This document shows, piece by piece, positions 7,512 to 39,259 of a stretch of 57,475 bases of DNA. A program made the position numbers and the translations under genes. The number at the start of each line of letters is the position of its first letter. Position 1 is the stretch's first letter. The stretch is from Patescibacteria group bacterium. Its GTDB lineage: Bacteria > Patescibacteriota > Dojkabacteria > JAKAPS01. The stretch covers positions 1 to 57,475 of the forward strand of contig JANWIC010000001.1 of the NCBI GenBank assembly GCA_025450075.1. Reading direction: 5' to 3'. Under the pieces are notes generated by a model. It was not told the origin of the DNA. It made no database searches and was given only the letters and a program-made list of their open reading frames with translations.

Positions 7512-7516
7512 CAGTA

Positions 7517-8026
7517 TTATTGACTTAGTATAACCGAAATTGTCTTCTTTTCAAAGCTGTTAAGGACGTTTGTTCCTCTCCCATCATTTTTCAATATCAA
7601 GCTTTTAGGGCTTATAGCGATATCTGACTTCCCATATCCTATCGTATTAAATGTAATGGTTTCAAGTGTATTTGTTCCTGTAAATCCTGGATTTGGTTTG
7701 CCGCAATATAGCCTAACAAATCCTTTATGTGTATCGTATGTTCGATCTGTATAGAGTGTACAAAAGGAACTTTGGGTATCAACTGATGATATCGCAAGGA
7801 TATGAGGATCAAAATATATTGTAATACCTACTGCGTTAATAGCAGTTGGTGTATTTAATTGGACAGCAGCAATAACTGGTGTATTAATTCCTGTTCTTGT
7901 CGTATTTGTGGCGATTGATAATAGCTTAGTGCTATTTCCTAAAAGTGCTGGTGTATCAGGACCAGGAATGATTAAAAATACAACAAATAAAATGGCAACT
8001 AAAAATGGTATATTGTTTTGTTTCAT
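7517..8026 (-). CDS. Secreted single cohesin-domain protein
   Basis: AINAVGITIYFDP.IL...; GFTG..TLETITF...G.S.I....S.IL.NDG.GTNVL, a pattern typical of CPR cohesins. Confidence 0.75.
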   Translation of the reverse strand: MKQNNIPFLVAILFVVFLIIPGPDTPALLGNSTKLLSIATNTTRTGINTPVIAAVQLNTPTAINAVGITIYFDPHILAISSVDTQSSFCTLYTDRTYDTHKGFVRLYCGKPNPGFTGTNTLETITFNTIGYGKSDIAISPKSLILKNDGRGTNVLNSFEKKTISVILSQ

Positions 8027-8029
8027 AGG

Positions 8030-9331: not shown

Positions 9332-9333
9332 AA

Positions 9334-10329
9334 TTATCCTTGAGCTATGACTTTCAAAGCTTTTGCAATACGTTTCCTTCCACTAATAACGAGAAGAATG
9401 ATGATAATCAGCGAAACAATGGCAATTGATACGCCAATTACGAGTGGCTTTGGAATTACAGTAAATGTTGTGGAAGCAAGTAATGCTTCATGCTTCTCTC
9501 CATATGTTGCAACTAAAGTAGCAGTAAACCTGCCAATTGGGTTTTTGTTTGTCCAATAAGTAACCATATTTCGAGCAGCATTTGGAAGTACATTACTTCC
9601 ATTCAGTTGAATCTCATCAACTTTTGCTCCGAACATATCGGTAATTATAATTGTTCCCGATGGTTTAATATGAGCATTTCCTGCGTTTTGTACTTTAAGG
9701 GTAAGAGGAACTGGTCCGTATTCTGAGTACCCGGGAGCGGAAAAGCCAACAATTGATGCTTTTTCTGTTACGTTCCCGGATACACGGAGCAGTACTAAAG
9801 AAACTTGACCTGCAGAAACATTTGCTGCTCCAGGAGTATTTCCTGCGCCGCTTTGTATTTGGATTGCACCATAGTGCCCTCCCGGTTCTGCATTATTTGG
9901 AACATTAATTATAAAGCTAATCGTTCCTTCTCGATGTGCTGGTATATCTACTGATGTTTGATCAGCATTAATCCAACTTGCTAAAGAAAATGAGCGTGAT
10001 GAATCTCCTTTGACTAACTGTACTTCTCCGTTATCTCCGCTTGCTTCAAAATCGGCTGCTGAAATGTTATATACTTCTTCAGAACCTGTTTCATTTCGAA
10101 TTGAAATTTTTTCACTTAAAGAATCCCCTGGGTTTGCAAAAAGTTCAAAAGTTGGTGGAACAATAGTTGTACCTCCACTACTTACCTGAGCATGCACACT
10201 ACTTGTAAGAGGGATTAGTGATACGAATAGTGAAAATGATACTAAGGCGCGAATGACAGTATGTTTTTTCACGAAGTTGAGAATGTTAATTAATGGTTTA
10301 ATTGTAGGGATTCTGGTATGAGTTGTCAA
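9334..10329 (-). CDS. DUF916/DUF3324-like (WxL-interacting) membrane-anchored surface protein
   Basis: PPTFEL.ANPG...I.IRN, I.VP.NAEPGGHYGAI, V.N.GN.HIKP.G.I.I.DMFG, VLP...R; C-terminal TM helix. Confidence 0.75.
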   Translation of the reverse strand: MTTHTRIPTIKPLINILNFVKKHTVIRALVSFSLFVSLIPLTSSVHAQVSSGGTTIVPPTFELFANPGDSLSEKISIRNETGSEEVYNISAADFEASGDNGEVQLVKGDSSRSFSLASWINADQTSVDIPAHREGTISFIINVPNNAEPGGHYGAIQIQSGAGNTPGAANVSAGQVSLVLLRVSGNVTEKASIVGFSAPGYSEYGPVPLTLKVQNAGNAHIKPSGTIIITDMFGAKVDEIQLNGSNVLPNAARNMVTYWTNKNPIGRFTATLVATYGEKHEALLASTTFTVIPKPLVIGVSIAIVSLIIIILLVISGRKRIAKALKVIAQG

Positions 10330-10430
10330 ATAATAGTCATATTTTCTTTAGAATACGAACAAATTTTTGTAATGTACCCTACAACAACTTAGTTTACATT
10401 CGATTATGAATAACTTACACTATATGGCAT

Positions 10431-11513
10431 ATGAAACAATTCATGAGAAGAAAAAAAGTACGTGGATTTATCGCGCTACTCTCTGCTGCTGCCTCATTCA
10501 TGATGGTTTCTATTCCTACGTTAGCTGCGTCGCTTGGTGCAATGAGTGTTGCGCAATCTACCATGCTTCCTGCTACAACAGCAAGTTATACACTTAACTT
10601 TACAACTACAACAGGTTCAACATTAAAAGAAATTGATTTTCAATTTGCAACCACATCAGGAGGAAGTACAAAACCGACAAATTTAGATTTAACAGGAGCA
10701 ACACTAGGCACACTCGTAGGATTATCAGGATCCTGGTCATTAGATACGACTGGCGCAACAGCTGGACTTTTGAAAATTACTTATTCGACTGGTGTGAGTA
10801 TAGCTGCAAGTACTGCAATTCAAGTACCTTTGAATAATATTGTAAATGGACATATTGGAGATTGTACTTCAAGCTCTACAGCATATAGTGATACCTGTTA
10901 TATAGGAATAACAACATATTCTGACCTTGGAATAACGAGTGTTGATAATGGAAATGTTCCATTTAACTTTACCCAGGATCCATCTATGACCTTTACAATC
11001 GGAGGGGTATCATCAGGTACTTCTACTAATGGAGTTTCTACAACAGCAACTACAACATATAATACAATTCCATTTGGCCACATAATTATCAATGATGTGA
11101 ATTATGCAGCTCAACAATTAACTGTTACTACAAATGCACCGAATGGCTATAGCGTATATATGAAAGTGTCAACACAACTGACGGGAATTTACACAGGTAC
11201 ACTGGTAAGTCCGTTTTCTGGTAACAGCGCGACCTGGGCATCTCCACAGAGCTGGAGAGTCCCTACCGGTACAACAAACGGAACAGACACTATGTGGTTT
11301 GGGGCAAATACATCTGATACACGTGTAAGCGGATGGTCATCAGCTTCAGCAAAGTTTGGGCCTGCAAATAGCACAAATAATGTTGTTATGTATTCATCTT
11401 CAGCTGATACAGGGACAAGCGCCTATGTTACCTATGCAATTGAAGGAAATATTTACCAAGATCCTGATACATATAGTGGAAATATTGAATATACTATTGT
11501 CCCTAATTATTAA
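10431..11513 (+). CDS. Secreted Ser/Thr-rich two-domain surface protein, WxL-like C-terminal domain (paralog of 26262..27392)
   Basis: Signal peptide; LTVTTNAPNGYSVY; C-terminal QDPDTYSGNIEYTIVPNY. Confidence 0.75.
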   Translation: MKQFMRRKKVRGFIALLSAAASFMMVSIPTLAASLGAMSVAQSTMLPATTASYTLNFTTTTGSTLKEIDFQFATTSGGSTKPTNLDLTGATLGTLVGLSGSWSLDTTGATAGLLKITYSTGVSIAASTAIQVPLNNIVNGHIGDCTSSSTAYSDTCYIGITTYSDLGITSVDNGNVPFNFTQDPSMTFTIGGVSSGTSTNGVSTTATTTYNTIPFGHIIINDVNYAAQQLTVTTNAPNGYSVYMKVSTQLTGIYTGTLVSPFSGNSATWASPQSWRVPTGTTNGTDTMWFGANTSDTRVSGWSSASAKFGPANSTNNVVMYSSSADTGTSAYVTYAIEGNIYQDPDTYSGNIEYTIVPNY

Positions 11514-13701
11514 TGTCCAATTTAGATTGTGAGTATTCATTTGTTTGCCCATTCTTTTGATAGCAAAGTAGAAGATACTCTTTTGTCTTTTGATCATCAG
11601 GATTTAACATTAGTGCAGAGAGCAAAAATCCTTCAGCATCTTTCGAGTCATTCTGTGCTAAATCTTCAGTACCTTTTTGGTAATAGTAAGAGAAATCCTC
11701 AATTACTGGTGTACCCGGATTGTATTGCTGCATATACGAATCTAGCTCTGAAATTGGGGTAAGATTAGTCGATTGTAAATCTTTAGCATGCTGCAATTCT
11801 GCTTGTGCAAAATCAGCATATCCCTCATTGAATAATGTAAATGCAATAAGTGCATGTTGAACAGCATAAGACTGCCTAATACTCTGTTTACTAAAATCCC
11901 TCTCATCAGGGGTGATACCAGCCAGTTTTGTGTCAATGGTTTTTGATATGTTCTCACTTTCCTGGAATTGTTTAGTTGTAAAGCTTCCTGGATCCTTTAC
12001 TACTTTTAGTAGATATCCATAAGGAATAGTGTAGTATGGGTTTCCTGATACTCCGATAGCATCTAAGGTTGTATTTGGAACAAATGATAAGAAGATAGGG
12101 TAAGAAGTTACGTCCCGTGCAATGATATCTCGAATGATTGCTTGATCAGCATTGATCTTTGTTTTAAAAATATTGGGGTAATGTTGCAAAATTGTTGTCT
12201 TGTATTTTGATACTGAAACTGGAATGATAATGACATCATCTTTTCGTATTCCCTTTACTTGTTGCTGGTATTCGTATGAAAAACAATCCACATCAGCAAA
12301 ACAGATGAGGAATGACTTAGAAGGAAGAGTTCTAAGAGTTTGGTATGCGATATATTCATATATATCATTATGGCTGTTATTCACTCCCATCCAGTTATAT
12401 CCAAGAAGAGAAATGGGGAGAAGAAATACGGCAAAGTATATCCAAATTGTTTGTTTTTTCTTCCATAGATATCTGATAAGTCCAAATATTCCGATTGGAA
12501 TAAAGAGTGAAAAGATGACTTCAGATTGAAGGTAAAGTCGAAGGTGAATACCAATATCTGTAATCAATGTTGCCTGGCCAGCTTCGCTATCCCATGGAAT
12601 GGCGGTATATGAAGAAAGAAATATACCAGCTATTAAGAAACTAAAAAAAAGAAGAAATGCAATATCATATCCATACCATTTCTTCTTTTTTTTCATAAGA
12701 ATGAAAACAATTCCTAAAAGTGCGAAAGGGAATGTCCATAGAAAATGATTGAGTAAAAATCCAACATAATGAGGAATTTCTGCAAATTGTGTACCAATAT
12801 CAATATGTGAGTTATATGATCCTCCTACACCAGAACTTCCAAAATCTTTACGAAGGATTATATTAATAATATCTTGTGCTGAGGTTGGATTCCTCCAGCT
12901 TAATAATGATCCTGAATGGGAAAGAGTAGGGAGATAAAAATATGGTAGGATAAAAAAGATGAATGATACTAATATACCGCATACTGCTATGAATATATTC
13001 TTCCACAGCTTCTTTTTATCCTGTAGATACAAAGCAGTGATAAATATTGAAATGGCAGGGATAATTAATATTGAAACCTGCTGATTGGAAAGCATCAAGC
13101 CGACAGCTGCACATAAAACAAAAAAAACGATATAGCTTGTTTTAACATCCTTTTCCCAGAAATATTTGAATAAAAGACATAAATACAATACTAAAGCAAT
13201 GAAAAAATCATTTAGTGGAAATACTTCAGTTATGCCAGAGTAGAGGAAAAAAAGATAAGAGAAGGCAAGAATTAATGAACCGGCAATTGAGGCAATGTTT
13301 TTTTGAAGTATTGTAGAGCTTTCATCTTCTTTTGTATGGTCAAAAATGTATACCAATAAATGCGTAGATGAAAGATATATCAAGACTACTGCAAGAGAAT
13401 GAAATAATCCTGATGAAATGTTCAATCCATATGCAGGGTTTAGAAAAGGGATATGCGTAAAAAAATATCCGATAAGCATATATAGAGGATATGCTGGAGG
13501 ATGTGGTATTCCTTTGGTAAAAGCTGCTGTTATCATTTCGCTGCTATCCCCATAACCTAAGGCATAGTGTGAAGTTATGGTAAGGTAGACGAGAAAAACT
13601 AAAAGAAAGAGAAGAATTGCTGTTACAACTTTTGTCCTATTTGGTATAGTAATAGTATGAGTATTTTGTCTTTTCTTCATAAGGATGATGTTATCTGTCA
13701 T
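11503..13701 (-). CDS. DUF2723 / TMEM260-like GT-C glycosyltransferase with C-terminal TPR
   Basis: GDSSEMITAAFTKGIPHPPAYPLY, EVFPLN, many TM helices, ALMLNPDD TPR-like end. Confidence 0.85.
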   Translation of the reverse strand: MTDNIILMKKRQNTHTITIPNRTKVVTAILLFLLVFLVYLTITSHYALGYGDSSEMITAAFTKGIPHPPAYPLYMLIGYFFTHIPFLNPAYGLNISSGLFHSLAVVLIYLSSTHLLVYIFDHTKEDESSTILQKNIASIAGSLILAFSYLFFLYSGITEVFPLNDFFIALVLYLCLLFKYFWEKDVKTSYIVFFVLCAAVGLMLSNQQVSILIIPAISIFITALYLQDKKKLWKNIFIAVCGILVSFIFFILPYFYLPTLSHSGSLLSWRNPTSAQDIINIILRKDFGSSGVGGSYNSHIDIGTQFAEIPHYVGFLLNHFLWTFPFALLGIVFILMKKKKKWYGYDIAFLLFFSFLIAGIFLSSYTAIPWDSEAGQATLITDIGIHLRLYLQSEVIFSLFIPIGIFGLIRYLWKKKQTIWIYFAVFLLPISLLGYNWMGVNNSHNDIYEYIAYQTLRTLPSKSFLICFADVDCFSYEYQQQVKGIRKDDVIIIPVSVSKYKTTILQHYPNIFKTKINADQAIIRDIIARDVTSYPIFLSFVPNTTLDAIGVSGNPYYTIPYGYLLKVVKDPGSFTTKQFQESENISKTIDTKLAGITPDERDFSKQSIRQSYAVQHALIAFTLFNEGYADFAQAELQHAKDLQSTNLTPISELDSYMQQYNPGTPVIEDFSYYYQKGTEDLAQNDSKDAEGFLLSALMLNPDDQKTKEYLLLCYQKNGQTNEYSQSKLDINN

Positions 13702-23980: not shown

Positions 23981-25516
23981 ATGTTTCATAAATCGGTTAT
24001 TAATGTTATTGGAAGTGTTTTGCTATCCTTTATTACAGCAATAAATATCCTCATTCTTGCGCGAATCCTTTCTCCGTCCGTACTTGGCCAATATACCTAT
24101 GCATTATGGATGATTAATATCAGTGTGATTATTGCAACAATGGGTATACCTGTTACATTACTTAAATATATCCCAGAAATGACACAAAGGCTTGGAATCA
24201 TGCGAGCAAGGATGCTTTTTATGTTTTTAAGCGGTTTAGGTTTTCTTTTTTCGATAATTATTGCATTATTTATCGCTTTTATTCTTCCAAGACTGCAACA
24301 CGCAACAGGATATCTTACTTATCTTTACCTGATTGCAGGATCAATTCCACTTCTGGTTTTTATTAATTTATTTTCTTCATATTTTAAGAGCAGGATGAAG
24401 TTTGGAAGCATCTATACATTTAATGCTATTTATTCTGTTCTATTATTCTTTGCAACATGCTTTGCTGCTTTTGTAACAAAGAATGTAACTCCTGTATTGT
24501 GGGGTTATTTTATTGCAGCCCTTGTCTATTCAATATTTTTACTTTATTTGGTTTTGAGAAATATTCATATCCGACTTTATATTCCAACTATCAAGGATAT
24601 AAAAACACTCCTTTTTGAAAAGAAAAGCATTGCAGATATGGAATTAAAAGAGGTACTTACTTATATATTTTCAGTTTCCTTCATATTATTACTGGATAAT
24701 ATCATTTGGGATCGTTCAGAAGTATTTTTCTTAAAACATTTTTCAACAAATGAGCAAATAGCATATTATTCAATCGCTTTTTCTGTTGTTCAAAAAATTA
24801 TGTATTTATTGCCAACAGCGTTAAGTGGATATTTGTTAACAACATATTCCTTGCACAGGGCAAAAGGGAGGGAGAAAGAAATCATGGAGATACTCTTTAA
24901 AGCTTGCAAATTTTTATTAATTATAAACATACCATTGGCGTTGGGTGGTGCAGCTCTTTCTACTCCCATAATAGAATACCTGTTTGGTCATGCATATGTT
25001 GGAGCAACAGGAAGTCTTCGTTTCTTATTTCTAGGGGCGATTGCCTCTCCTGCATCTCTTACGGTAAGTACAGTTATCTATGGCCAGAAAAGGCAATATA
25101 TGATCTTGTATTACGGTATTATTTGTACGATCTTGTCAATTATTCTTGATATTATCCTCATTTCACATTTTTCAGCAATTGGGGCTGCAATTGCAAATTC
25201 AATCGTCCAACTGTTATTTGGTTCCCTTCTTTTATTCTATGCATACAGGTCTCTTCATATTGACTATCCATATCGGTTTGGTGCATCCATTACAGGGGTA
25301 TCGCTTCTTCCTGCAATTTTACTATTTTTTCTCAACACAGAATTTCATAGTATAATTGTATTTATCCTTTCAATAATTGCAGCGAGCGTTATTTATTGCT
25401 ATTTGATTCTAAAACTTGGGATAGTAAACCGTAAAGATATCTCATTTATCGATCCTTTTATCAAAAACGATAAGGTGAGGGGAATGCTCGATCGCTTTTT
25501 TCTCGCATCAATATAG
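23981..25516 (+). CDS. Wzx-type polysaccharide flippase (MOP superfamily)
   Basis: About 14 TM helices; LARILSP...GQY, AYYSIA, LI......GAAIA. Confidence 0.88.
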   Translation: MFHKSVINVIGSVLLSFITAINILILARILSPSVLGQYTYALWMINISVIIATMGIPVTLLKYIPEMTQRLGIMRARMLFMFLSGLGFLFSIIIALFIAFILPRLQHATGYLTYLYLIAGSIPLLVFINLFSSYFKSRMKFGSIYTFNAIYSVLLFFATCFAAFVTKNVTPVLWGYFIAALVYSIFLLYLVLRNIHIRLYIPTIKDIKTLLFEKKSIADMELKEVLTYIFSVSFILLLDNIIWDRSEVFFLKHFSTNEQIAYYSIAFSVVQKIMYLLPTALSGYLLTTYSLHRAKGREKEIMEILFKACKFLLIINIPLALGGAALSTPIIEYLFGHAYVGATGSLRFLFLGAIASPASLTVSTVIYGQKRQYMILYYGIICTILSIILDIILISHFSAIGAAIANSIVQLLFGSLLLFYAYRSLHIDYPYRFGASITGVSLLPAILLFFLNTEFHSIIVFILSIIAASVIYCYLILKLGIVNRKDISFIDPFIKNDKVRGMLDRFFLASI

Positions 25517-25571: not shown

Positions 25572-26177
25572 ATGGTATCAAACATTCTAAGTTTTATCAT
25601 TCCATATATCAGATCACTGATTGTTCTTGGATTAATAGTGGCTACATCTTTTATATTCCAGGTAGTGAATAATGCAAACAGGAGTTATAGGATTTTAAAA
25701 ATTAAGTTTGATGAGCACATTCCATTAATTCCTGTATTTATCTATCCATATATATCGTTTTTGTTGTTCATTCCGGTATCTTTGATGGTTATTGTTAAAG
25801 TTCGTCCCGATCTTTTTCTTCCCGTTATCATAACATTCACTATTGCCGGCATTATCTGTACTCTTTTTTTCTATTTCTTCCAAACCTATATTGAAAAACC
25901 TGAAATTGAAGCAATCTTCCATGCACATAAACTATTGAAAAAAGTTCAGGATGCAGTGGAGCCATACAACTGCTTTCCAAGTTCACATGTTCTCTATACC
26001 GTCTTAACGGCATTTTTTCTTGTAACAGTTTTCCCTGCACTTTTTATATTTGTAAACATTTATACCTTTCTTGTTTGTGCTTCTACTGTGTTTGTAAAGC
26101 AGCACTATATTCTTGATATTTTCGGTGGGCTAGCATTGGCTGCACTGATGTACTTCACGGTTATAAAACTAGTCTGA
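25572..26177 (+). CDS. PAP2-superfamily membrane phosphatase/phosphotransferase
   Basis: NCFPSSH and STVFVKQHYILDI..G motifs; TM helices. Confidence 0.85.
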   Translation: MVSNILSFIIPYIRSLIVLGLIVATSFIFQVVNNANRSYRILKIKFDEHIPLIPVFIYPYISFLLFIPVSLMVIVKVRPDLFLPVIITFTIAGIICTLFFYFFQTYIEKPEIEAIFHAHKLLKKVQDAVEPYNCFPSSHVLYTVLTAFFLVTVFPALFIFVNIYTFLVCASTVFVKQHYILDIFGGLALAALMYFTVIKLV

Positions 26178-26261: not shown

Positions 26262-27392
26262 ATGATAAAAACTGCTCGAAAATTATTTGTATTCCTCACA
26301 GTAGCAGGTCTTGCTTTAACACTGAATGTAGCTGGCATTAATGCAGCTCAATTGACTAGCCAATCTATTTCGCTTTCAAATTCAGCTCCAGCAACACCTT
26401 CTTCTTATACTATTAAATTTACCACAGCGGGAACAGCAAGTCTTAATGACGTCGACTTTGTGTTTGCTACAACACCTTCTGGAGCCGCGACGACTCCATC
26501 AGGTATGAGTCTTGCCAGCGCAACCCTGACATCAACTACTAACCTTGGATCAGGATGGACAATTGATACATCACAAGCCGGATCTGGTATCCTTTCAATC
26601 ACGAATGCCACAGCTCAGAATATTGCTTCTGCAACTGTTGCCACAGTGGTATTAGGCGGACTTACAAACCCAGCTATCGGAAGTGGTGCCGCACAGTGTG
26701 CAAAATCTGATGCAAACGGTTCTTCTGGAACTTGTTATATCCGATTTACCACAAAAGCTGCTGGACCTACTACAATAGATACTGGCGCAGCATCGTTTAC
26801 CCTTGTAGCCACAACATCAGCTACTGCAACACTTGATCCATCTATGTCGATGATCATCAGTGGAGTAGCAGCAGGACAGACTAATGATGGAATCGTAGTC
26901 TCAACTGGAGACAGCTCCACATACAATACACTGCCTTTTGGCCACATGGCTGTAAATACGATCTACGACACCGCTCAGGAAATTCAAGTTTACACAAACG
27001 CACAACATGGATATACGGTTACTATGGCTATGACAACTCCAATGACTGGATCAGTCGGATCTAACCAAATTTCTCCATTTACTGCAAATAGTGCAACTTG
27101 GCTTGCCCCTGTAGCATGGACCGCTCCAACAGGAACTACACCAAATACCAACACAGCTTGGATTGGTGGAAATACTACTGATGGAACTCGTGTAGGAGGA
27201 GGTGTAGGAGGCTCACAAGGTGGAAATCAAACCTTTGGACCTGTAAATACAACTCCTGTTAATGTATCTTTATCTAACCAACCTGATAATGGAACTGCTG
27301 TATTTGTTTCATACCAATTACAAGCAAACCCATATCAGCCTGCAGATACTTATACTGGTGTATTGCAATATAACGCAACGCCAACGTATTAA
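26262..27392 (+). CDS. Secreted Thr/Ala/Gly-rich two-domain surface protein, WxL-like (paralog of 10431..11513)
   Basis: Signal peptide; shared motifs SYT..FTT, DF.FATT, TCYI, DPSM, YNT.PFGH, TNA..GY.V, YQ..DTY.G...Y...P.Y. Confidence 0.8.
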   Translation: MIKTARKLFVFLTVAGLALTLNVAGINAAQLTSQSISLSNSAPATPSSYTIKFTTAGTASLNDVDFVFATTPSGAATTPSGMSLASATLTSTTNLGSGWTIDTSQAGSGILSITNATAQNIASATVATVVLGGLTNPAIGSGAAQCAKSDANGSSGTCYIRFTTKAAGPTTIDTGAASFTLVATTSATATLDPSMSMIISGVAAGQTNDGIVVSTGDSSTYNTLPFGHMAVNTIYDTAQEIQVYTNAQHGYTVTMAMTTPMTGSVGSNQISPFTANSATWLAPVAWTAPTGTTPNTNTAWIGGNTTDGTRVGGGVGGSQGGNQTFGPVNTTPVNVSLSNQPDNGTAVFVSYQLQANPYQPADTYTGVLQYNATPTY

Positions 27393-27410
27393 GTCTGTAT
27401 GATATATACA

Positions 27411-27440
27411 CAAAAAGAGCTCCCTAAGGAGCTCTTTTTG
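27411..27440. terminator. Intrinsic terminator, bidirectional geometry
   Basis: CAAAAAGAGCTCC-CTAA-GGAGCTCTTTTTG, a perfect 13-bp inverted repeat between convergent genes. Confidence 0.9.
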
Positions 27441-27600
27441 GCCCTATTCAACATAATCTATTGGAAAAAATAGGATACCGTTAAATTCGTATATTTTACC
27501 ATTAAATTTGATTTCCATTGTAACGCACCTCCTGTATACTAATGTATTTAATTAATATACTTCCCTTCATTTTAGAAATAGGAATATGAGATATGGAATA

Positions 27601-29970
27601 CTATGATGAAAGAGAGTTTAATGCACTTTGTGCAATATTGTTTCCGGGGTCTAGCTTAAGTATATTTTTGTATTCTTTTTTAGCCATATTATTTTGTTTA
27701 GTATATTGATAATACTGAGCAACGATAAGCCTGGCATTCAAATTAAACGGATTAAGGAAGGTTGCTCGGATTGCAAAATCATATGCGTTTTTTGCTTGTC
27801 CTTGCTTTTGTATTGTCTCTAAAGCATTTTGATAAAATGCATCAGACGAGGGAGATGATTCACCAAGATGGAATGGACCATTATTTTTAGGATGGCTTAA
27901 GTTGTTTGCAACCTGTTGGAATAGTGAATTGCTTTTATCAAGCTTTGCAGCCAGATCTGACAAACTTACTGCATTGGCATTATCTCCTTCTTCCCAATGG
28001 AGGTATGAATTCAATGAGATTAAGCGTGCAAAAAATTCATCATAAAACTTCTTCCAGTAATTCTTGAATTCATAACCGTTATTCGTGTAATTATTGAAAT
28101 ATTCAGCATAAGAAATTGACTCGGTATATGGATAAATTTCTAATGAATTAGGAATCTTTGTAACAATTTTTCCTACATAACCATTCGGAAGAGTGTAGAA
28201 ACTACCCCCATCAAGACCCATAAAATTTACGAATTCACTATCAACATCAGATTCATAAACGTCTTTGCCTTTATACAGGTTCCAGGAAATGATATCAGCT
28301 ATGTTATATGGGCCGGTTTTGTAATAGAACTCTTGTAACCCCGGTTTTTTATCCAGATAGCTTTGTCTTAAGGAATAGTCAGCAGGAACAATGGTAATAT
28401 CATTTCTGACTCCTAATACTTGTTGGGTATATAGGAAAGAAAAACAGGATGGGTCTGAGAAACAGACTAATATACTATTTTTCTTCATACTATTTAGGCT
28501 CACTTTTGCATATTGATCTATATATGTAAATGTATGGAGGTCTGCATCATTATAATTTGATCTAATTAAATAAGAGATACCAACCATCCCTATCATTAGA
28601 AGAAATAGTGTTGCAAATCTAATTGCATAGTTAGTGTATTCACCTTCTTTTGTACTATTTAAAGATGAAAGTATTGAAATAAGTAGCTTGAAAGTTACAT
28701 ATATTCCCACAGGTATGAAGAGAGCAAGGATAACATCAGCCATTATGTATTGCCGTTGAATAATAGCAATATCTCCAAAATGTTTTACGAAATCAGCAAT
28801 TGGAGATGGAAATTTTGCATACATAGCAAAAAGCAATCCTCCTACTAAATACAACGAACCAAGATAGGCGAGAAGACGCCTGTTTCGAAGGATAAGAAAA
28901 ATTGCTCCAAGGCTTGCAAAGAGTAATCCGACATAGGTGAAATCATTATATACTGAAGCTAGATAAGGTTGAATTGAATCAACACTTGCCTGAAAATTAA
29001 ATGAAGATCCATATGCGTTAGATGATGCAGAAGCATAGTTTTGACGAGTTATGTCTGACCACAGACCACTAAGATTATTATTTAGTCCCCATGATACTGA
29101 ATGGTCAAGATTGTTGTAAAAAAAGAGAAGAAAAAATGGAAGGAAAAAAGAGAGCAAAAATGCGATTATTAAATAACTAAGTGTCTTAAATGAAAGTAAT
29201 TGTCTAAAAATATGAGTTCTGACAATTATATAAAGGATATATAAAAAGATGACAGGGTAGATAATAACTATTGTTTGTAGATGAGAAAGCGCTAATCCTG
29301 CTATGATTGCAATCCAAATGAGCCACTTCCTTATCCTATCCGCGGTCTGAGTAGTAGTTTTCCTTTGCTCGTTAAATTCTTTTGTCTCAATATCGGGAAA
29401 TTTTTGCTTATATAAAATTCTTGTTAATCTAAGAGTTAGATAAATTAACAGAATGACGAAAAAATCATTCATTGCAAAAACCTCGACAGTGTTTGCATAG
29501 AACCAGAAAAGAAAAGAAAATGCTAAAAATAGTGCAGATATTGCTGAAATAATAATCTTTATATTTTCAAAGTTTGTCTCTTCTACATAATAAAAGAATG
29601 TTTTATATTTTTTCTTTTTAATCTTTTGTTCAATACCTCTCAGTTTTACATTCTTTAAAATTTCAAGAGATGTTGCATAAACTATAACAACCGTAAGAGA
29701 TTGAAAAAAAACACTGGTGAGATTCGCTTTGAATGCAATTGTCCCAATGGGAATAATATGGGTAAAAAGGAATATGATAAGGATATAAATTGGGTATCCT
29801 GGAGCATGGGCAACACTAAGTTGATAACCCATTAGAGTGAGTTCATCTGAATCTGCCATTGATACATGATATCGTGCACAAGTAAAGAGATAAACTCCAA
29901 ATACGAGACAAAATAGTAATGTTCCAACTTGTTGACTTTTTGATTTCGGAAACAGTTTAAGAATACTCAT
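27601..29970 (-). CDS. DUF2723 / TMEM260-like GT-C glycosyltransferase with C-terminal TPR (paralog of 11503..13701)
   Basis: ADSDEL......VAHAPGYPIY, EVFAMN, ILKLDPGN TPR end. Start may be 29970 (ATG) or 29994. Confidence 0.85.
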   Translation of the reverse strand: MSILKLFPKSKSQQVGTLLFCLVFGVYLFTCARYHVSMADSDELTLMGYQLSVAHAPGYPIYILIIFLFTHIIPIGTIAFKANLTSVFFQSLTVVIVYATSLEILKNVKLRGIEQKIKKKKYKTFFYYVEETNFENIKIIISAISALFLAFSFLFWFYANTVEVFAMNDFFVILLIYLTLRLTRILYKQKFPDIETKEFNEQRKTTTQTADRIRKWLIWIAIIAGLALSHLQTIVIIYPVIFLYILYIIVRTHIFRQLLSFKTLSYLIIAFLLSFFLPFFLLFFYNNLDHSVSWGLNNNLSGLWSDITRQNYASASSNAYGSSFNFQASVDSIQPYLASVYNDFTYVGLLFASLGAIFLILRNRRLLAYLGSLYLVGGLLFAMYAKFPSPIADFVKHFGDIAIIQRQYIMADVILALFIPVGIYVTFKLLISILSSLNSTKEGEYTNYAIRFATLFLLMIGMVGISYLIRSNYNDADLHTFTYIDQYAKVSLNSMKKNSILVCFSDPSCFSFLYTQQVLGVRNDITIVPADYSLRQSYLDKKPGLQEFYYKTGPYNIADIISWNLYKGKDVYESDVDSEFVNFMGLDGGSFYTLPNGYVGKIVTKIPNSLEIYPYTESISYAEYFNNYTNNGYEFKNYWKKFYDEFFARLISLNSYLHWEEGDNANAVSLSDLAAKLDKSNSLFQQVANNLSHPKNNGPFHLGESSPSSDAFYQNALETIQKQGQAKNAYDFAIRATFLNPFNLNARLIVAQYYQYTKQNNMAKKEYKNILKLDPGNNIAQSALNSLSS

Positions 29971-30050
29971 GAAATGTTTTGGATTTGACACCATTTAGCT
30001 TTGCATTTAGAATGATCATAAACAACATTGACCTTTATGTCAAACTGCCT

Positions 30051-30988
30051 ATGAAAACCCCTATAAAATGCAGTGTAGGAATTACAGCATATAACGAGGG
30101 AAAAAATATTTCCAGAATTTTAAACGCTTTACTGCGTCAAAAACTTCATGATGTCATTATAGATGAGATTCTTGTAATCTCATCCGGAAGTATTGACGAT
30201 ACAAACAATATCGTAAAAGAATCTGCAAAAAAAGATAAACGGATAAAACTTACTGTAGAAAGTAAACGTAAAGGTAAAGCCAGTGCTGTTAATATCTTTA
30301 TTGATAATGCTAAAAATGAAATTTTGGTTTTAGAAAGTGCTGATACAATCCCGGATAAAAATACTATTGAACGGATGGTCCGGCCTTTTAAAAATGACCA
30401 TATTGGAATAACTGGATCACATCCAATCCCAATAAATTCAAAAAAAACACTTGTCGGCTATGCTGTGCATTGTATGTGGGATTTGCATCATCAGATTTCA
30501 CTTAACCATCCAAAAATGGGTGAAATGATTGCATTTCGTAAATCATTCAAAAAAATACCGGTTCTTTCTGCAGTTGATGAAGTTAATATAGAAGCCCTCA
30601 TAAAAGGACAGGGGTACAAGTCAAAATATATAGCACATGCAATTGTAAGAAATAAAGGACCTGAAACATTAAAAGAATATATATCACAGCGAAGAAGAAT
30701 TGCTTTCGGTCATGTTGCAACAAAGATTGAACATGGTTATAAGGTATCTACATTTAGTGGGAAAAGAGCTTTGTATCTGATGATAAAAAACCTGGCAAAA
30801 GTGGCAGTTACAAAACCATTAACATTACCAAAAGAAATCCTTTTTTCTGCAGGGACTGCTTTTCTTGAAGTATATGTTAGAATCTTGGGAATTATAGATT
30901 ACCGGGTGTATAAGAAGAATTATGCTGTTTGGAAAATAGCTTCAAGTACAAAAGACCTTCGGATTAAGGTAAAGCCTGAGATACAAAC

Positions 30989-30992
<4 letters not shown>
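30051..30992 (+). CDS. GT2 glycosyltransferase
   Basis: VGITAYNE, SGSIDDT, GKASAVN, SADT, QRRR. ATG 30051 preferred. Confidence 0.88.
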
Positions 30993-33615
<2,623 letters not shown>

Positions 33616-33619
<4 letters not shown>

Positions 33620-35472
33620 ACATTTATTACTTTGATATTTGGTTCTTCTTCAGGTATGTTATTTATGACCTCCCCAAGTTCAGTAATAGGTGGTTCTTTG
33701 TGTACTTTAATCTGAACTTTTTCTTCCTCACGAGGAGTTGGAGGTGCAATTTTTTCTGTTGAGATCGGGGTAACAGGAGTATTGGTGCTTGCTTCAAGCG
33801 ATGGCGATGATGGATTCTGAGGTGCTACTACACCAACTGGGACACCAGATCTCTTAGTATTCAAATCAACTGGAGTTTGTATTCCTTCTTTATTAAGTTC
33901 CTTTTTCTCCTGCTTGTCAATTTCTTGTTTAGTTTCAGTTGCTGCAAGAGATTGTAAGAAGTCAGGAGTGAATATTTTATCTAATTCATCGTTTACATCA
34001 TCAAATCCCACATCAGGAGAACCAATTTTATCTCTCAATTCTTTATATGCATCAGTACGTAATAACTTGAGAAGTTCTTTTTTAATCTTTTTCAAGTCGT
34101 TTAATTCTATATCATCAGTTTTTCCTTGTGTTACGATGAAAAGGAAAACAATTTCCTCTTCAAGAGAGTAGGATACTGCGCTTAGTTGGTTACAGATCTC
34201 AAGCATTCGTTTTCCTCTTTTAATTTCTCTTTCAGTTTCTTCTGTAATTTCTGTATTAATATTCTCATAAGATTTCACTTCGTTATATCTTTGCAGTTGT
34301 GATGCTGCAACCTCACTTAACTTTCTAAGAAGTTTAGTTTGGACACTTCCTCCAATACGAGATACTGAGGTTCCTGAATCAACAGCAGGAAAGATGCCAG
34401 CATGCATAAGATGTGAATCAACATAAATATGTCCGTCAGTAATGCTCATGAGGTTTGTCGTGATGTATTCTGATACATCACCTGATTGAGTTTCTGCAAG
34501 TGGAAATGCTGTTAAAGATCCTCCTCCAAATTCTTTTGAAAGACGTGCGCTTCTCTCTAGAAGTCTTGAATGCAAAAAGAAAATGTCTCCTGGATACGCA
34601 TCTCGACCAGGGGAACGTTTTAACAATAGCGACATTTGACGGTATGATTTTGCTTGTTTTGAAAGATCATCATAAATTATGAGGGCATTTTTTCCCTGCT
34701 TCATAAAATATTCACCTATGGAGCAACCTGCATATGGCGCTATGTAGTTAAGAGAGGGTGGATCATCAGCTGTTGCAAGAACAACTGTGGTATATTCCAT
34801 AGCTCCTGATGCTTCCAAACTTTCAATGATACCTTTCACTTTTGCTTTTTTCCCACCGATACTGACATATATACAAGCAATATCTTTTCCTTTTTGGTTA
34901 TTAATAATGTTTGTCATGAGAGTCGTTTTCCCCGTTTTCCTATCTCCTATGACAAGTTCTCGCTGTCCTCTTCCGACAGGAATGATTGAATCAATGACAA
35001 GTACTCCAGTCCTGATTTGTTCTTTAATTTGTTCACGAGCATTCACCGGTGGAGCAGGTACTTCAATTGGAGCAGATTTGTGAGGCCCCAGTTCTCCCTT
35101 ACCGTCAAGAGGTTTGCCGATTGGATTAATGACTCGTCCTAATACGCCTTCTCCAACAGGTACTGTTACGCGTTTCCTTGATGATTTTACAATGTCTCCT
35201 TTTGAGATTTTCGTAAAATCACCTAATACGACCGATTCTACAAGATCTTGGTTAATACCAAGGATAAGGGCATTAACTTCTTCACCTTTTGCTTCAATTT
35301 TTATCATGTCGTCAATCCTTGCATTTGACAGCCCTTTTATTTTGCAAATTCCATCTCCGATATATACGACTTCACCAATCTCAATGACATGAGGAACAAT
35401 TTTTGTATCTTGAGGGATAGAAGCCTCTAAATAGCTGGTAACTTTATTTTCCGATTCCTTTTTTGGTTTCAT
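33616..35472 (-). CDS. atpA: F1 alpha subunit with ~100-aa low-complexity C-terminal extension
   Basis: GRGQRELVIGDRKTGKT, YDDLSKQA..YRQMSLLL.R.PGRDAYPGDIFFLHSRLLER, SVSRIGG. Confidence 0.97.
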
Positions 35473-35480
35473 GGCAGTAC

Positions 35481-36008
35481 TTAATTTGTCTTGCTCATTG
35501 CTTTTTTCGTCCTCTTTAATGACTTAATCCATTCATTTTCGTAGGATTTCAGATGGTTTCTTAATGAAGCATCAAAGATATACTTGTCTTCTTTAATCAC
35601 AATACCACCGATAAGCCCTGGATCAATTTTGATATTTAGAATGACTTTTTTATTTAGTTTCTTTTCAATTTTATCTGCAAGTTCTTTAATATCTGGTTCT
35701 GTTAAGGGAATTGCAATTGATACATTTACCATCTTGTATGTATTTGTCATATCCTGTATTTTATTCACCAGTACTTTTAATTCTTTTGAACTAAATGCCC
35801 CTAAGTTATCATTTGCTTGGATAAGCAGTATTTCTTTCAACATGGGATTCGTTGCTTCGCTTGCAATAACTTCAAGTACTTTGTCTTTTGTCACTTTTCT
35901 AATCCCTTCAAGTTTACCAAGTATATGTTCAAGATTTAAAAGCACCTGCTCAAGTGTTGATTTCTTATATATTGCCGATGAAATTGTTTTATATAGGCTT
36001 TGTTCCAT
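35481..36008 (-). CDS. atpH: F1 delta (OSCP) subunit
   Basis: V..A.PL......L...L.KKV.L...IDP.LIGGIVI......DASL; directly upstream of atpA. Confidence 0.85.
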   Translation of the reverse strand: MEQSLYKTISSAIYKKSTLEQVLLNLEHILGKLEGIRKVTKDKVLEVIASEATNPMLKEILLIQANDNLGAFSSKELKVLVNKIQDMTNTYKMVNVSIAIPLTEPDIKELADKIEKKLNKKVILNIKIDPGLIGGIVIKEDKYIFDASLRNHLKSYENEWIKSLKRTKKAMSKTN

Positions 36009-36010
36009 AT

Positions 36011-36520
36011 TTATTCTTCAAATCTCATCTCATCCAGAGATTTTTCAATTATCTCTTTGTGATCGTTATATGATAAGGTCTTTTCAAATATTTTTTGTGT
36101 TACATTCATGACAAGAGATACCATATTTTTTTCAACTTCTTCTCTTTGTTCTTTTTCAAATTCTTTAATGCGCTCAGAAGCCTCTGATCTCATGGTATCT
36201 TCTAAAGTTTGCAGTTCCTGCATTTTCTTATTCATATCCTCCTGCATCTTGTTTAGCTTGATATCACATTCATTATTGATTTTTTGACTTTCTTCCTCAG
36301 CTTTTTTTGCTTGTGTTAGTGCCTCATCCATTTTTTGTTTTGCCTCATTTGCCATTTGTTCACTTTCCTTTGCTCTTTCGTCATATGTTTTTTTTATAAT
36401 TTCGATTTGTTCTTTTATTTTTCCCTCATCTTCTTTTTCTTTGCGGAAAGCTATAAAGAAAAAAAGCATCAGGCCAAGTATGAGGACATTTAATGGTATA
36501 AGGGCGTAACTTAATATCAT
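36011..36520 (-). CDS. atpF: Fo subunit b-like stator protein
   Basis: Single N-terminal TM helix, long E/K coiled coil, C-terminal KI....L...DH..II...L; upstream of atpH. Confidence 0.75.
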   Translation of the reverse strand: MILSYALIPLNVLILGLMLFFFIAFRKEKEDEGKIKEQIEIIKKTYDERAKESEQMANEAKQKMDEALTQAKKAEEESQKINNECDIKLNKMQEDMNKKMQELQTLEDTMRSEASERIKEFEKEQREEVEKNMVSLVMNVTQKIFEKTLSYNDHKEIIEKSLDEMRFEE

Positions 36521-36535
36521 AGTAGGACGAATAAA

Positions 36536-38641
36536 TTATTTAATGAGTACAGCGGATGCAATAGATAATATAGCAATTCCTAAACATAATACCAAGCTTA
36601 TTGAAAGCGCAACTTGAATTTTTGTTCTTGCAAACGGATTTCTTCCAATTGCTTCAAGCCCTCGAGCTGACATGAATCCAATACTTACAGATGAACCTAG
36701 AAGACCGAGCCCGGCAGCAATTCCTGCAGCAAGAACTTTAGCACTGTTTGATGAATTTTGTGTTGCATTCACGATTACCTGTTTTAAACCGCTTCCTAAA
36801 TTTTGTAATGGATTTGGAGTTTCTTTTCCATTGACATCAAATTCATTACTTGTTCCTGATAATCCAAGTCCATGGATTGTTATGATATCTTTTTGCATCG
36901 GTTTACTAATTGTTACATTTCCTGTCCAAACACCGTTTGTAAATGTATCTCCTGTGGATGGGGAGATTGTTGTTGTTCCGTCAGCTAAAGAAATTGGTCC
37001 CGCGAATGTTCCTAAAATATTATTGTTATTATCCTCCGCAGTAACTACCACTACAAATGGGACTCCCAATAGCTGTGGACTTGGAATTGTCCTGATAAGT
37101 AAATGGCCACCACCGATATTGGTATTTAATATTTTTTGATTAAGAGGAACTGCCTGGATGATTACTTGTGCTTGTGCTTGGACACTTCCTGATTGGTCTG
37201 TTGCTACAGCAGTTATCGATGCATTTCCTGGAGTTGTTCCTGCATTAATGCTTGTTGAAGAGCCATAGCTTTGTGCAAGAGTACCTGCGCCTGCCGATAG
37301 TTGCCAACTTATTTGTGTATCAGTAATTGGGGTATTTGAAGCATCATATGCTTGTGCATTTACTATGACACTTCCACCAGCTGCAACTACAGCTGGATTA
37401 GGGTTAATACTTACGTGATCGATCTTAAGGTTAGATAAGGGTTGATATGGTCCAGTTGGAGTAGGAGAAGCCGTTGAAAGTGGTTGATATGGTCCACCTG
37501 TAGTGAGAGGAGATGGAATAGGGGTAGGGGTTGGTGTTGAACCTCCACCGCTACTACTTCCGCCAGAGCTTCCGCTGCTTCCTGATCCCGGATTATTGTT
37601 ATCACTAATATTTTCGTTAATAACGGTGATGGATGCTACTGCTCCAACGCTTCCCACACTTACCTTTACTGTATTATTGTACACACCAGGAGTAGTCCCT
37701 GAAACAAAATTACCATTTGAATCAATAGTTCCTCCTCCATTTACAACACTCCAAGTTGGGGAAGAAAGACTTATCGGGTTACCGTATTGATCTGTTCCTG
37801 TTACGGAAAATGGCTGTGTTCCGCCTTTTGGAAGAATACTAGTTAAAGGTGAAATCTTAAGTGTAGATAAAGGTCCGCTGGTCGCATTTTCATAAAAATT
37901 TACTCCTGAGGAAATATTAGAACCACCCCCGATTGATCCGTTAATTGTATAGGTACCGATTTTGCTCCCCAGTGTCACGGAAGTCGAAGCTGTACCAGAA
38001 AAATTTGTCGTTACACTATAGTTGGAAAGTCTTTGTCCGCTTGCTCCGGGAGGATATCCCGGAATTGAAAAATTGACACCAATATTGGGAATCGGGTTAC
38101 CGTATTGATCAATTGCTTTTACTGTTAAACCTTGTGAAAGAGTCGTTATGACTTGTCCAGTTTGAGCTGATCCTCCGATTAATGATAGAAAATCCTGGTT
38201 ACCGGGATTAACAACAAAAGACGGAGATATTCCGTTAGTAAATGGCGAGTTATATGCAGTAATCGTATCAGGATAAGCAGTTCGGGTAATAGTAACTGTT
38301 CCATTCCATACACCATTTGAAAAATTATTAGTACGTGATGGAGACATTGTATTTGTCGCATCAGAAAGATTAATCACCCCATTAAAGGAAGTATCAACCT
38401 GAGATGAACTATTACATTTGTATAATGTAACGGAAAAAGGAGTTCCAGCATTGATTGGGTTATTTACAAACGATGTGTCAAATACGACAGTATTTGTTAA
38501 TCCTTGGCATTGTGTGCTTTGTGCATACACAATACCTGCAACAAGCAGGAAAATAGAAGCGAAAGGAGCAAGTATAGCACTGAAAATACTTAACACCATC
38601 GCCTTTCGGAAATATTTCATTTTAATAGGCAGTTGTGTCAT
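36536..38641 (-). CDS. Secreted multi-Ig-like protein fused to a C-terminal ATP synthase subunit c-like hairpin
   Basis: Signal peptide; Ig-like repeats (DQYGNPI twice, F.NGVW.G.VTI twice); GS/PT linker; last 69 aa AAGIAAGLGLLGSSVSIG...EAIGRNP...; occupies the atpE position. Confidence 0.88.
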   Translation of the reverse strand: MTQLPIKMKYFRKAMVLSIFSAILAPFASIFLLVAGIVYAQSTQCQGLTNTVVFDTSFVNNPINAGTPFSVTLYKCNSSSQVDTSFNGVINLSDATNTMSPSRTNNFSNGVWNGTVTITRTAYPDTITAYNSPFTNGISPSFVVNPGNQDFLSLIGGSAQTGQVITTLSQGLTVKAIDQYGNPIPNIGVNFSIPGYPPGASGQRLSNYSVTTNFSGTASTSVTLGSKIGTYTINGSIGGGSNISSGVNFYENATSGPLSTLKISPLTSILPKGGTQPFSVTGTDQYGNPISLSSPTWSVVNGGGTIDSNGNFVSGTTPGVYNNTVKVSVGSVGAVASITVINENISDNNNPGSGSSGSSGGSSSGGGSTPTPTPIPSPLTTGGPYQPLSTASPTPTGPYQPLSNLKIDHVSINPNPAVVAAGGSVIVNAQAYDASNTPITDTQISWQLSAGAGTLAQSYGSSTSINAGTTPGNASITAVATDQSGSVQAQAQVIIQAVPLNQKILNTNIGGGHLLIRTIPSPQLLGVPFVVVVTAEDNNNNILGTFAGPISLADGTTTISPSTGDTFTNGVWTGNVTISKPMQKDIITIHGLGLSGTSNEFDVNGKETPNPLQNLGSGLKQVIVNATQNSSNSAKVLAAGIAAGLGLLGSSVSIGFMSARGLEAIGRNPFARTKIQVALSISLVLCLGIAILSIASAVLIK
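37773..38110. repeat. 20-bp exact direct repeat encoding DQYGNPI in two Ig units
   Basis: ATCGGGTTACCGTATTGATC at 37773-37792 and 38091-38110. Confidence 0.85.
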
Positions 38642-38676
38642 TCAAAAATATTGTAAATTCAACAATATTATCATAT

Positions 38677-38706
38677 AAGATACCATTTTATCCAAAGCAA
38701 AGTCAA
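38677..38706 (-). promoter_or_regulatory. Candidate promoter of the ATPase operon
   Basis: TTGACT-N18-TATCTT with TGn on the minus strand; alternative TACAAT 8 nt before ATG 38641. Confidence 0.4.
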
Positions 38707-38791
38707 GCAAATTCTTCCCTTAGATAGTGAATAATATTTGACACAAAAAGCTATAGTAGTATATTATATCAATACTTTATTGGTTAATATA

Positions 38792-39259
38792 ATGAGTGAA
38801 TACGATGATGGTGTTAGAGTGAATGTACATCCAACCACCCTTACAGTTATTAAAAGATTTAATAATGATGGTTTACCACTAATGGCGGAAAATATCACAT
38901 CTTTATGGACTTTAGTTCCAATTTATCCAATATTACTAGAGGATGGGACATACCAATTTCCTTTAAGGGAAGCATTAATCTATCAGGTTCTCACGTTACA
39001 TGGTATACCATTATCAAATAAGATTGATTTACGGATTGTAAATGCTATTAAAGCTTGGGAAGCTGCTAGAGAAATGCATTTTGATATTCCTTTTATCGGA
39101 ATTTATGGAAGTGGGAGAAAGCAATTATGTTTGGATTTCTTTGCAGTAGGAAATTGGAATGCAACTTATGATGAAGAATTTGGTTTGCTAGAAGTTAGGG
39201 GTGTGAGTAATCCTCCTTCTTTAATACTGTATAAAGCAAAAGATGAGAATGAAGATTAA
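38792..39259 (+). CDS. Hypothetical protein
   Basis: The track's TTG at 38738 coincides with a TTGACA -35 box; ATG 38792 (MSEYDD) is preferred. Confidence 0.6.
   Translation: MSEYDDGVRVNVHPTTLTVIKRFNNDGLPLMAENITSLWTLVPIYPILLEDGTYQFPLREALIYQVLTLHGIPLSNKIDLRIVNAIKAWEAAREMHFDIPFIGIYGSGRKQLCLDFFAVGNWNATYDEEFGLLEVRGVSNPPSLILYKAKDENED

Follow-up and report, generated by a model that had tools for sequence, protein, structure and literature searches.

In a 57,475-nucleotide stretch of genomic DNA from a Patescibacteria group bacterium (contig JANWIC010000001.1 of assembly GCA_025450075.1; this whole 57-kb stretch is hereafter the window), we identified a gene that joins a string of immunoglobulin (Ig)-like domains to the helical hairpin of an F-type ATPase subunit c, and which we call Ig-c. 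Its product is probably the ring subunit of a second, paralogous, ion-uncoupled F-type ATPase that spends ATP to move or re-set a structure on the cell surface. The operon combines F1 and stalk genes with a c-type hairpin that carries an ectodomain, has no ion-binding carboxylate and is not linked to a subunit a, and this combination is conserved. Across scattered lineages of the phylum the Ig-c arrangement is monophyletic and under purifying selection.

The c-type hairpin and its ion-binding position

The Ig-c gene, and the parts of its product that bear on ion coupling, are listed here with the strand and the basis of each assignment (aa, amino acids; ORF, open reading frame; AF2, AlphaFold2).

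36536..38641, minus strand: Ig-c fusion gene, 701 aa, encoding a signal or anchor helix, five beta-sandwich domains and a C-terminal c-subunit hairpin (ORF list, Pfam, AF2 model)
36542..36751, minus strand: c-subunit helical hairpin, residues 631-700, with a Gly-rich helix 1 (PF00137, alignments)
36635..36664, minus strand: cytoplasmic F1-facing loop RGLEAIGRNP, residues 660-669 (conserved in database relatives)
36583-36581, minus strand: codon TTA of Leu687, at the site of the ion-binding Glu/Asp (letters read directly; Pro669 + 18 = Leu687)

Pfam assigned the hairpin to ATP-synt_C (PF00137; residues 637-700, 26.7 bits, cut-off 24), and a profile search of the genome's contigs gave it 32.6 bits for the same family. 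The two-helix hairpin and its score, the R-(N/Q)-P loop and the Gly-rich helix 1 by which this family is recognised are all present, and the Asp/Glu of helix 2 is absent. Four glycines of helix 1 (G640, G644, G646 and G649) are kept in the Ig-c family. An earlier note on this DNA had placed the essential carboxylate 18 residues after the loop Pro (P+18) and had found it replaced by Leu, in a second helix free of acidic residues. Re-reading of the codon bears this out: Leu687 shares an alignment column (MAFFT) with Glu55 of the genome's canonical 68-aa c subunit, which likewise lies at P+18, and there are zero D/E in helix 2 after the loop (C-terminal tail, ...RGLEAIGRNPFARTKIQVALSISLVLCLGIAILSIASAVLIK). 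The expected spacing was also confirmed by a control set of unfused c subunits from other loci, which have Glu at P+18 in 46/46 cases.

When the fusions are aligned, no homologue has Asp or Glu at P+18. The residue is L, I or V in 12/12 first relatives, L, I, V, F, M or A in 26/26 further full-length ORFs, V in three giant forms and L, I or V in 36/36 database proteins, and an acidic residue was sought without success anywhere in helix 2 of all these members (12, 26 plus the three giant forms, and 36). The cytoplasmic loop, by contrast with the lost carboxylate, is the best conserved part of the protein. The pattern [RK]G[LMV]EAIGRNP is kept in 36/36 database relatives that were found without it, in agreement with the earlier proposal that the F1-binding loop has been retained. 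About 32 loci from species-representative genomes were found by the loop pattern GLEAIGRNP itself, and these were excluded from the loop-conservation count, which they would have made circular.

An F1 head and stalk encoded with the fusion

Six further genes lie in the operon, with a short gap upstream of Ig-c.

36011..36520, minus strand: b-like peripheral-stalk subunit, 169 aa, with one N-terminal transmembrane helix and a charged helical remainder
35481..36008, minus strand: delta (OSCP) subunit, 175 aa (PF00213, E 1e-15)
33616..35472, minus strand: alpha subunit paralogue, 618 aa (PF00006, PF00306, PF02874)
32660..33619, minus strand: gamma subunit paralogue, 319 aa (PF00231, E 8e-40)
31257..32666, minus strand: beta subunit paralogue, 469 aa, catalytic motifs intact (Pfam, motif conservation)
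30989..31270, minus strand: short epsilon subunit, 93 aa, beta-sandwich only, without the C-terminal helical domain (PF02823)
38642..38737, no strand: intergenic gap upstream of the Ig-c operon, without atpB, reaching a divergent ORF

All seven operon frames are open, and the F1 subunits alpha, beta, gamma, delta and epsilon were each recognised by Pfam. The 169-aa protein encoded 15 bp after Ig-c gave no Pfam match; its assignment as b-like rests on its position, its transmembrane helix and its conservation in the family, homologues being found directly downstream of Ig-c at other loci. In bacterial epsilon subunits the C-terminal helical domain restrains ATP hydrolysis. The short form seen here is typical of the Ig-c family, in which the median length of epsilon is 93.5 aa compared with 139 aa in canonical loci. 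The alpha paralogue ends in a low-complexity, P/E/K-rich tail of about 115 aa (33616-33960) that is absent from the canonical alpha subunit (512 aa), and alpha paralogues at other loci range from about 530 to 694 aa.

The gap between the start of Ig-c and the divergent ORF (38738-39259, plus strand) measures 96 bp with a TTG start codon or about 150 bp with the first ATG. To this extent the upstream region is as it had been described, but the promoter-like boxes that formed part of the description carry no weight. Such hexamers are present on the minus strand at 38706-38677, and they provide no evidence because sites of this kind are not commoner than in shuffled sequence (23 in the region compared with a shuffle mean of 32.4, that is, fewer than shuffled).

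Subunit a and the canonical ATP synthase

A subunit a was found neither in the Ig-c operon nor in the rest of the window, and the earlier statement that atpB is not in this transcription unit was therefore upheld. The assembly of the window's genome (1.11 Mb, 25 contigs, 93.5% complete) has exactly one PF00119 match above the cut-off (153.4 bits), on contig C16, where it adjoins a canonical, Glu-bearing c subunit (68 aa, 51.4 bits); neither gene is linked to Ig-c. Contig C16 carries a complete canonical atpB-E-F-H-A-G-D-C operon (a-c-b-delta-alpha-gamma-beta-epsilon), in which subunit a contains the motif ...SFRLYGN... with its Arg. Since this operon is complete, the organism has a normal ion-coupled ATP synthase besides the operon in the window. 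The absence of subunit a announced in the earlier note is thus true of the operon but not of the genome, and the loss of the organism's ion pathway that the note implied is contradicted by the intact atpB and Glu-bearing c on contig C16.

Identity between the two sets of this genome is 53% for beta, 41% for alpha, 20% for gamma, 26% for epsilon and 21% for b, and the delta subunit of the window operon gave no BLAST match with the canonical one. Because the sets are so deeply diverged (beta, alpha and gamma as above) and the canonical operon is intact, the window operon is a second system that arose by an old duplication, followed by a change of function, and not by loss in this lineage. The canonical delta (contig C16, L012 8266-8661) is short at 131 aa, the paralogue being full length at 175 aa, and the medians are 192 aa in the Ig-c family and 136 aa in canonical loci. 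Short delta subunits have been reported for F-ATPases of this phylum (10.64898/2026.10.01.756066). A third, weaker PF00006 match is present in the window's genome (contig C3 47415-48032, 108 bits, in a 442-aa frame) outside both ATPase operons, and the genome G001 likewise has a third weaker match.

The operons of relatives are also without a linked atpB. A profile hidden Markov model (HMM) of subunit a, built from 38 sequences (37 from canonical loci and the genome's own), matched 0/34 Ig-c sources (33 loci and the whole window, in six frames) compared with 43/48 canonical loci, and tblastn with the genome's own subunit a against the Ig-c loci agreed in finding none. It may be argued that ion coupling persists, with an unrecognised membrane protein in place of subunit a and the ion site elsewhere: these searches covered subunit-a homologues only, and the mycoplasma F1-like clusters have an unrelated protein with 12 transmembrane helices in place of F0, as described in the excerpts of PMC12994834 used here. 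However, the operon contains no conserved polytopic membrane gene, the b-like gene beginning 15 bp after Ig-c; gene-family maps show no membrane protein common to the loci; and helix 2 is without an acidic residue in every member. We therefore regard persisting ion coupling as improbable.

One PF00119 gene beside a canonical alpha/beta pair, together with a second alpha/beta pair, was found in the window's genome, in G001 and in 5/5 further carriers, and the second pair lies near the fusion in 4 of these 5. Both types of c subunit coexist in each genome checked, and hetero-oligomeric c rings with carboxylate-less sites are known in other bacteria. Ig-c could on these grounds be imagined to enter the c ring of the canonical ATP synthase, decorating or regulating it. 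Against this, Ig-c is inherited together with a complete set of b, delta, alpha, gamma, beta and epsilon of its own, none of which would be needed for mere decoration, and a mixed ring is very improbable.

Distribution, synteny and selection

Within a set of 41 related genomes that includes the window's own, a full-length Ig-c homologue was found only in the window's genome and in one other, which belongs to the same family and a different genus; this homologue has 49% identity and Ile at P+18, and its genome has two alpha/beta pairs. When 5.8 billion proteins were searched by words from the c part, 10 other fusions (649-772 aa) were recovered, and 28 rows were obtained with a profile at E <= 2.2e-219, some of them JGI-named 'ATP synthase subunit c'. 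The approximately 32 fusion loci from the GLEAIGRNP scan of species-representative genomes bear the record labels Berkelbacteria, CPR2, CPR3, Microgenomates, Saccharibacteria and 'Patescibacteria group', and several are labelled Gammaproteobacteria or Pseudomonadales, which we take merely as labels. In evenly sampled genomes of the phylum the fusion is present in 12/401 (~3%; E <= 1e-20; the window's genome is counted and one carrier, G410, is doubtful). The hairpin profile had 981 matches at E <= 0.001 among 1.84 billion cluster representatives, and about 30 of the first 75 of these rows combine an EAIGRNP-type loop with a non-acidic P+18, including giant forms of 1,386 to 2,672 aa. The same architecture was found in several families of the phylum.

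Synteny is likewise maintained. The next gene is b-like or delta in 27/31 Ig-c sources with at least 1.2 kb of downstream sequence (the exceptions are L014, L045, L050 and L055), and alpha/beta genes lie downstream in 22/25 sources with at least 4 kb. Two of the three exceptions to the latter count are giant-form loci in which a 2,400-aa gene and ABC/FtsX-like genes intervene, and the third is a locus with unread bases. The giant fusions (L045, L050, L055; G045, G049, G416, G116) reach 1,296 to about 2,590 aa with many Ig-like module repeats, and between them and the F1 genes lie genes for a secreted protein of about 2,400 aa, an ABC ATPase and an FtsX/MacB-like permease; G116 carries two fusion forms, of 676 aa and 1,685 aa. 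In a sister genus (L014 3708-4949; L052) a gene for an AAA-type ATPase of about 415 aa is found between the Ig-c and b-like genes, with the remaining operon after it. The operon is rearranged in L036 and L038, where Ig-c is preceded by the genes for gamma, beta, epsilon and a secreted protein and is followed by those for b, delta and alpha.

In the beta tree, the fusion-linked subunits (20/20) fall in a single clade (SH-aLRT 100), which has a long stem and is separate from 33 canonical betas. The catalytic motifs Walker A, GERTREG and Walker B, together with a DELSE-type loop, are conserved in 20/20 of these clade betas. For the c hairpin, the proportions of nonsynonymous and synonymous differences (pN/pS) were 0.019/0.483 between L036 and L038 and 0.006/0.661 between L039 and L042. 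In the same two closest pairs the ectodomain had a pN of 0.04-0.05 with a pS of 0.72-0.74, and in other pairs synonymous sites were saturated, in the same direction of pN < pS. Selection on the c domain, as measured in this way, has thus kept pN far below pS. The earlier note had suggested a concerted loss of ion coupling and not random decay. This is borne out for the operon, where the losses of the carboxylate and of a linked atpB co-occur, are conserved and are accompanied by pN far below pS, but it does not extend to the organism as a whole. The missing ion-path elements, two essential ones, would also be expected of a redundant operon copy heading for loss. Such decay was rejected as extremely unlikely, in view of the seven open frames, pN far below pS, catalytic motifs kept in 20/20 betas and the recurrence of one architecture in several families.

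Ectodomain, topology and the possibility of a static anchor

The remaining parts of the Ig-c protein are as follows.

38537..38623, minus strand: N-terminal hydrophobic helix, residues 7-35, a Sec signal peptide or signal anchor (K/R-rich start, long hydrophobic run, ...VYAQS)
36827..38521, minus strand: ectodomain, residues ~41-605, five Ig-like beta-sandwich domains (Pfam, AF2 model)

The AF2 model (mean pLDDT, the predicted local distance difference test score, 79.5 from a 34-row alignment) places beta domains at about 45-145, 150-254, 258-341, 409-496 and 512-604, and helices at 7-35, 611-625 (short) and, in the hairpin, 631-665 and 671-700; residues 345-401 are modelled as a disordered S/G/P/T-rich linker. 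Pfam identified a Big_1 domain at residues 172-249 (E 1.8e-11). Foldseek with the whole model returned generic Ig-like strings only (adhesion molecules, S-layer proteins and macroglobulins, TM-scores <=0.25), and no specific identity for the ectodomain emerged from this search, with TM-scores up to 0.25. The ectodomain's Ig-like modules are also found, with no c hairpin attached, in secreted proteins with an ice-binding-like PF11999 domain (P0038-P0099), some of them named Gemmatimonadaceae or Longimicrobiales.

Judging from its sequence, the N-terminal signal would put the Ig domains outside the cell and may be cleaved. Because this signal and the K/R-rich loop would together give the topology of a normal c subunit, with the termini outside and the loop inside, the Ig domains would be expected on the outer face of the ring. 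It is conceivable that the c-like hairpin is merely an oligomerising membrane anchor for an Ig-like adhesin, and that the products of the F1 genes exert no mechanical action on it or have some other function. The ectodomain does resemble adhesins and S-layer proteins, and with neither subunit a nor a carboxylate there is nothing in the membrane that requires rotation. Such static display is nevertheless unlikely, since the best conserved part of the protein is the loop that contacts gamma and epsilon, since b, delta, alpha, gamma, beta and epsilon follow at most loci with room for them, and since the linked betas form their own clade with intact catalytic motifs, none of which a plain anchor would need.

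A proposed ATP-driven surface machine

On the reading that we favour, a second ATPase uncoupled from ions, Ig-c hairpins would assemble into a ring whose RGLEAIGRNP loops bind gamma and epsilon. ATP would be hydrolysed by the alpha3beta3 head, a direction suggested by an epsilon that has lost its restraining domain and by the lack of an ion path that could drive synthesis. With the ring held against the b/delta stalk, the resulting torque or twist would then reach the Ig arms at the surface, so that cytoplasmic ATP might be spent on moving or re-setting a surface structure for attachment or host contact. Full turning of the ring and mere twisting may both be compatible with this proposal. In its working the machine would be comparable to the mycoplasma F1-like ATPases, from which a recognisable c ring would set it apart.

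Several points weigh against this proposal. We infer ring formation, F1 binding, ATP hydrolysis and force transmission alike, and the proposal does not account for how the b stalk braces against a ring without subunit a, or for the site at which work is done; no outside partner of the Ig arms was identified. The Pfam score of the c domain is barely over the threshold (26.7 compared with 24 bits), and three loci (L050, L055 and L058) have no alpha/beta genes within reach despite room downstream. Furthermore, all sequences of the family come from metagenome assemblies; the beta tree is the product of a quick search, in which the clade joins an unresolved polytomy with canonical betas; and synonymous sites are near saturation in most pairs, making the omega values rough. 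Other lines of enquiry had no bearing on the matter: a predicted complex of four c hairpins with the short epsilon scored 0.00 in a run without controls and has no weight either way, a search of sequencing runs listed no RNA run and two DNA runs (shares 0.39 and 0.16), and a protein atlas search gave no usable match.

A stronger version, which we put forward tentatively as possible but doubtful, is a true rotary surface motor. ATP hydrolysis by F1 would spin an ion-blind ring of 8-15 subunits bearing Ig-like arms of at least 20 nm (up to ~2,600 residues in giant forms) that cross the cell envelope, with the torque delivered to the cell's exterior and used for host attachment, gliding or the handling of pilus or adhesin neighbours. 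As a corollary, the mycoplasma Type 2/3 subunit with its signal peptide, ectodomain and two C-terminal helices would be a further diverged version of this one invention. If so, the Ig-c family would be the link that still shows the c, b and delta ancestry of mycoplasma-type machines.

Comparison with known systems

Like the canonical F1Fo enzyme of the same genome (atpBEFHAGDC, contig C16), the Ig-c operon encodes a c hairpin, homologous to the canonical one, in which helix 1 is rich in Gly and the loop contains R-N-P; the genes for b, delta, alpha, gamma, beta and epsilon come after it in the same order, and beta keeps its catalytic motifs. Unlike it, the Ig-c operon is without subunit a, Leu replaces the Glu of subunit c, and c carries an extracellular string of Ig-like domains, about 600 aa long, as a fusion; in addition, the window's epsilon lacks the C-terminal domain, its alpha has a C-terminal extension, and its beta is 53% identical and falls in a separate clade.

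The closest functional parallels are with the F1-like X0 ATPases of mycoplasmas, compared here by description only, from excerpts of PMC12994834. According to these, the MIB-MIP antibody-cleavage system depends on the Type 3 ATPase, and Type 2 is the gliding motor of Mycoplasma mobile. Both there and here, a second F1-like set (alpha, beta, gamma and epsilon) occurs beside a normal ATP synthase in a reduced, host-dependent bacterium, without a recognisable ion path and with a link to the cell surface (PMC12994834). Ig-c also resembles the Type 2/3 subunit in outline, and in outline only (signal peptide, ectodomain, two C-terminal helices). The mycoplasma clusters as set out in that source comprise seven genes, among them those for a protein with 12 transmembrane helices and a small cytoplasmic protein, without b and delta, and the excerpts report no likeness of the two-helix protein to subunit c (PMC12994834). 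In contrast, the window operon keeps b and delta, has no linked protein with 12 transmembrane helices, and its hairpin scores as PF00137.

Two further kinds of unusual c subunit or operon deserve mention. N-ATPases have the gene order atpDCQRBEFAG. They share with the Ig-c operon the coexistence of a second F-type operon with the main ATP synthase, but they retain subunit a and a c that binds ions (mostly Na+), and their genes are ordered differently; none of this holds for the Ig-c operon. This type is mentioned in 10.64898/2026.10.01.756066. Multi-hairpin c subunits resemble Ig-c in that some of their hairpins are without a carboxylate, but in the rows read they keep at least one carboxylate per protein and have no ectodomain, whereas Ig-c has zero carboxylates. 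Examples are P0137, P0157, P0162, P0164 and others, with 3-5 tandem c-type hairpins in about 240-430 aa, Glu alternating with Gln at P+18 and high hairpin-profile scores. Adhesins of the Big_1/invasin type share the Big_1 domain (E 1.8e-11) and an Ig-like string behind a signal peptide, but Ig-c differs from them in being anchored by a c hairpin encoded in an ATPase operon, and not by a beta-barrel, an LPXTG motif or a single helix.

Our literature search, which covered sources other than the supplements of 10.64898/2026.10.01.756066, found no description of a c subunit fused to Ig-like domains or of an a-less second F-ATPase in this phylum. That report examined 'unusual genomic neighborhoods' of the phylum's beta homologues, and its text, as far as available, does not describe the Ig-c system.

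Neighbouring surface-protein genes

In subsets of loci, Ig-c operons are flanked by genes for secreted or anchored surface proteins. Among their products are a WxLIP_PGBD protein that ends in a membrane helix, proteins of the cohesin-like and dockerin kinds, secreted proteins of about 380 aa that are encoded in tandem and have no Pfam match, and TMEM260-like O-mannosyltransferases. The window has copies of all these types at 6450-11513 and 26262-29994, listed here with other nearby genes.

6450-7511, minus strand: cohesin-like protein
7517-8026, minus strand: secreted protein, 169 aa
8030-9331, minus strand: dockerin/Big protein
9334-10329, minus strand: WxLIP_PGBD protein
10431-11513 and 26262-27392, plus strand: paralogous secreted proteins, 360 and 376 aa, no Pfam match
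11503-13701 and 27601-29994, minus strand: TMEM260-like O-mannosyltransferase genes (E 5.5e-33 and 4.1e-30)
23981-25516: flippase-like gene
25572-26177: PAP2 gene
29979-30992: GT2 glycosyltransferase

For the 376-aa protein AF2 predicts two beta domains, and the model has weak fold matches to MSCRAMM adhesins and CFA/I pilins. A phmmer search of the PDB with a neighbouring secreted protein and the WxLIP-like protein gave nothing relevant, and a homologue search with the 376-aa protein gave 11 matches, none named Mycosynbacter. A relation between these surface genes and the Pam pilus genes of this phylum (PamA-E, PamR and PamT; PMC13278184) is possible. Members of the TMEM260-like transferase family are found near Ig-c at 10 loci. 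Animal TMEM260 adds mannose to Ig-like IPT domains. The TMEM260-like transferases of the window may glycosylate the S/T/P-rich linker or the Ig domains of Ig-c.

The neighbourhood also raises the idea of an ATPase for assembly or export, in which an F1-like head would power, in the manner of FliI/FliJ, the secretion or assembly of neighbouring surface proteins (the adhesin- or pilin-like two-domain proteins and the WxLIP-like protein), with the Ig-c ring as a platform. The secreted two-domain proteins and the WxLIP_PGBD protein do recur beside the operon and have copies in the window. However, a c-type ring has no known export channel, the neighbouring surface genes carry Sec signal peptides and adjoin the operon in subsets of loci only, and searches bearing on a link to PamA-D gave no PDB or named matches. 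We consider this explanation quite unlikely.

Implications

Rotary ATPases are defined by a c ring coupled to an ion path. In the Ig-c operon the rotor and stator have been kept, both halves of the ion path have been lost, and every predicted ring subunit has gained a large extracellular domain. Automatic annotation of such genes as 'ATP synthase subunit c', as seen among the JGI names, may lead metabolic reconstructions to count a second 'ATP synthase' that is unable to make ATP. If our proposal of an ion-uncoupled, ATP-spending surface machine is true, an F-type rotor can be converted into a transmembrane force transmitter, and the Ig-c family provides a tractable model of energy transfer across the membrane by the mycoplasma F1-like ATPases. 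The family is, in addition, a sign that ultra-small, host-dependent bacteria may have a surface apparatus that consumes ATP.

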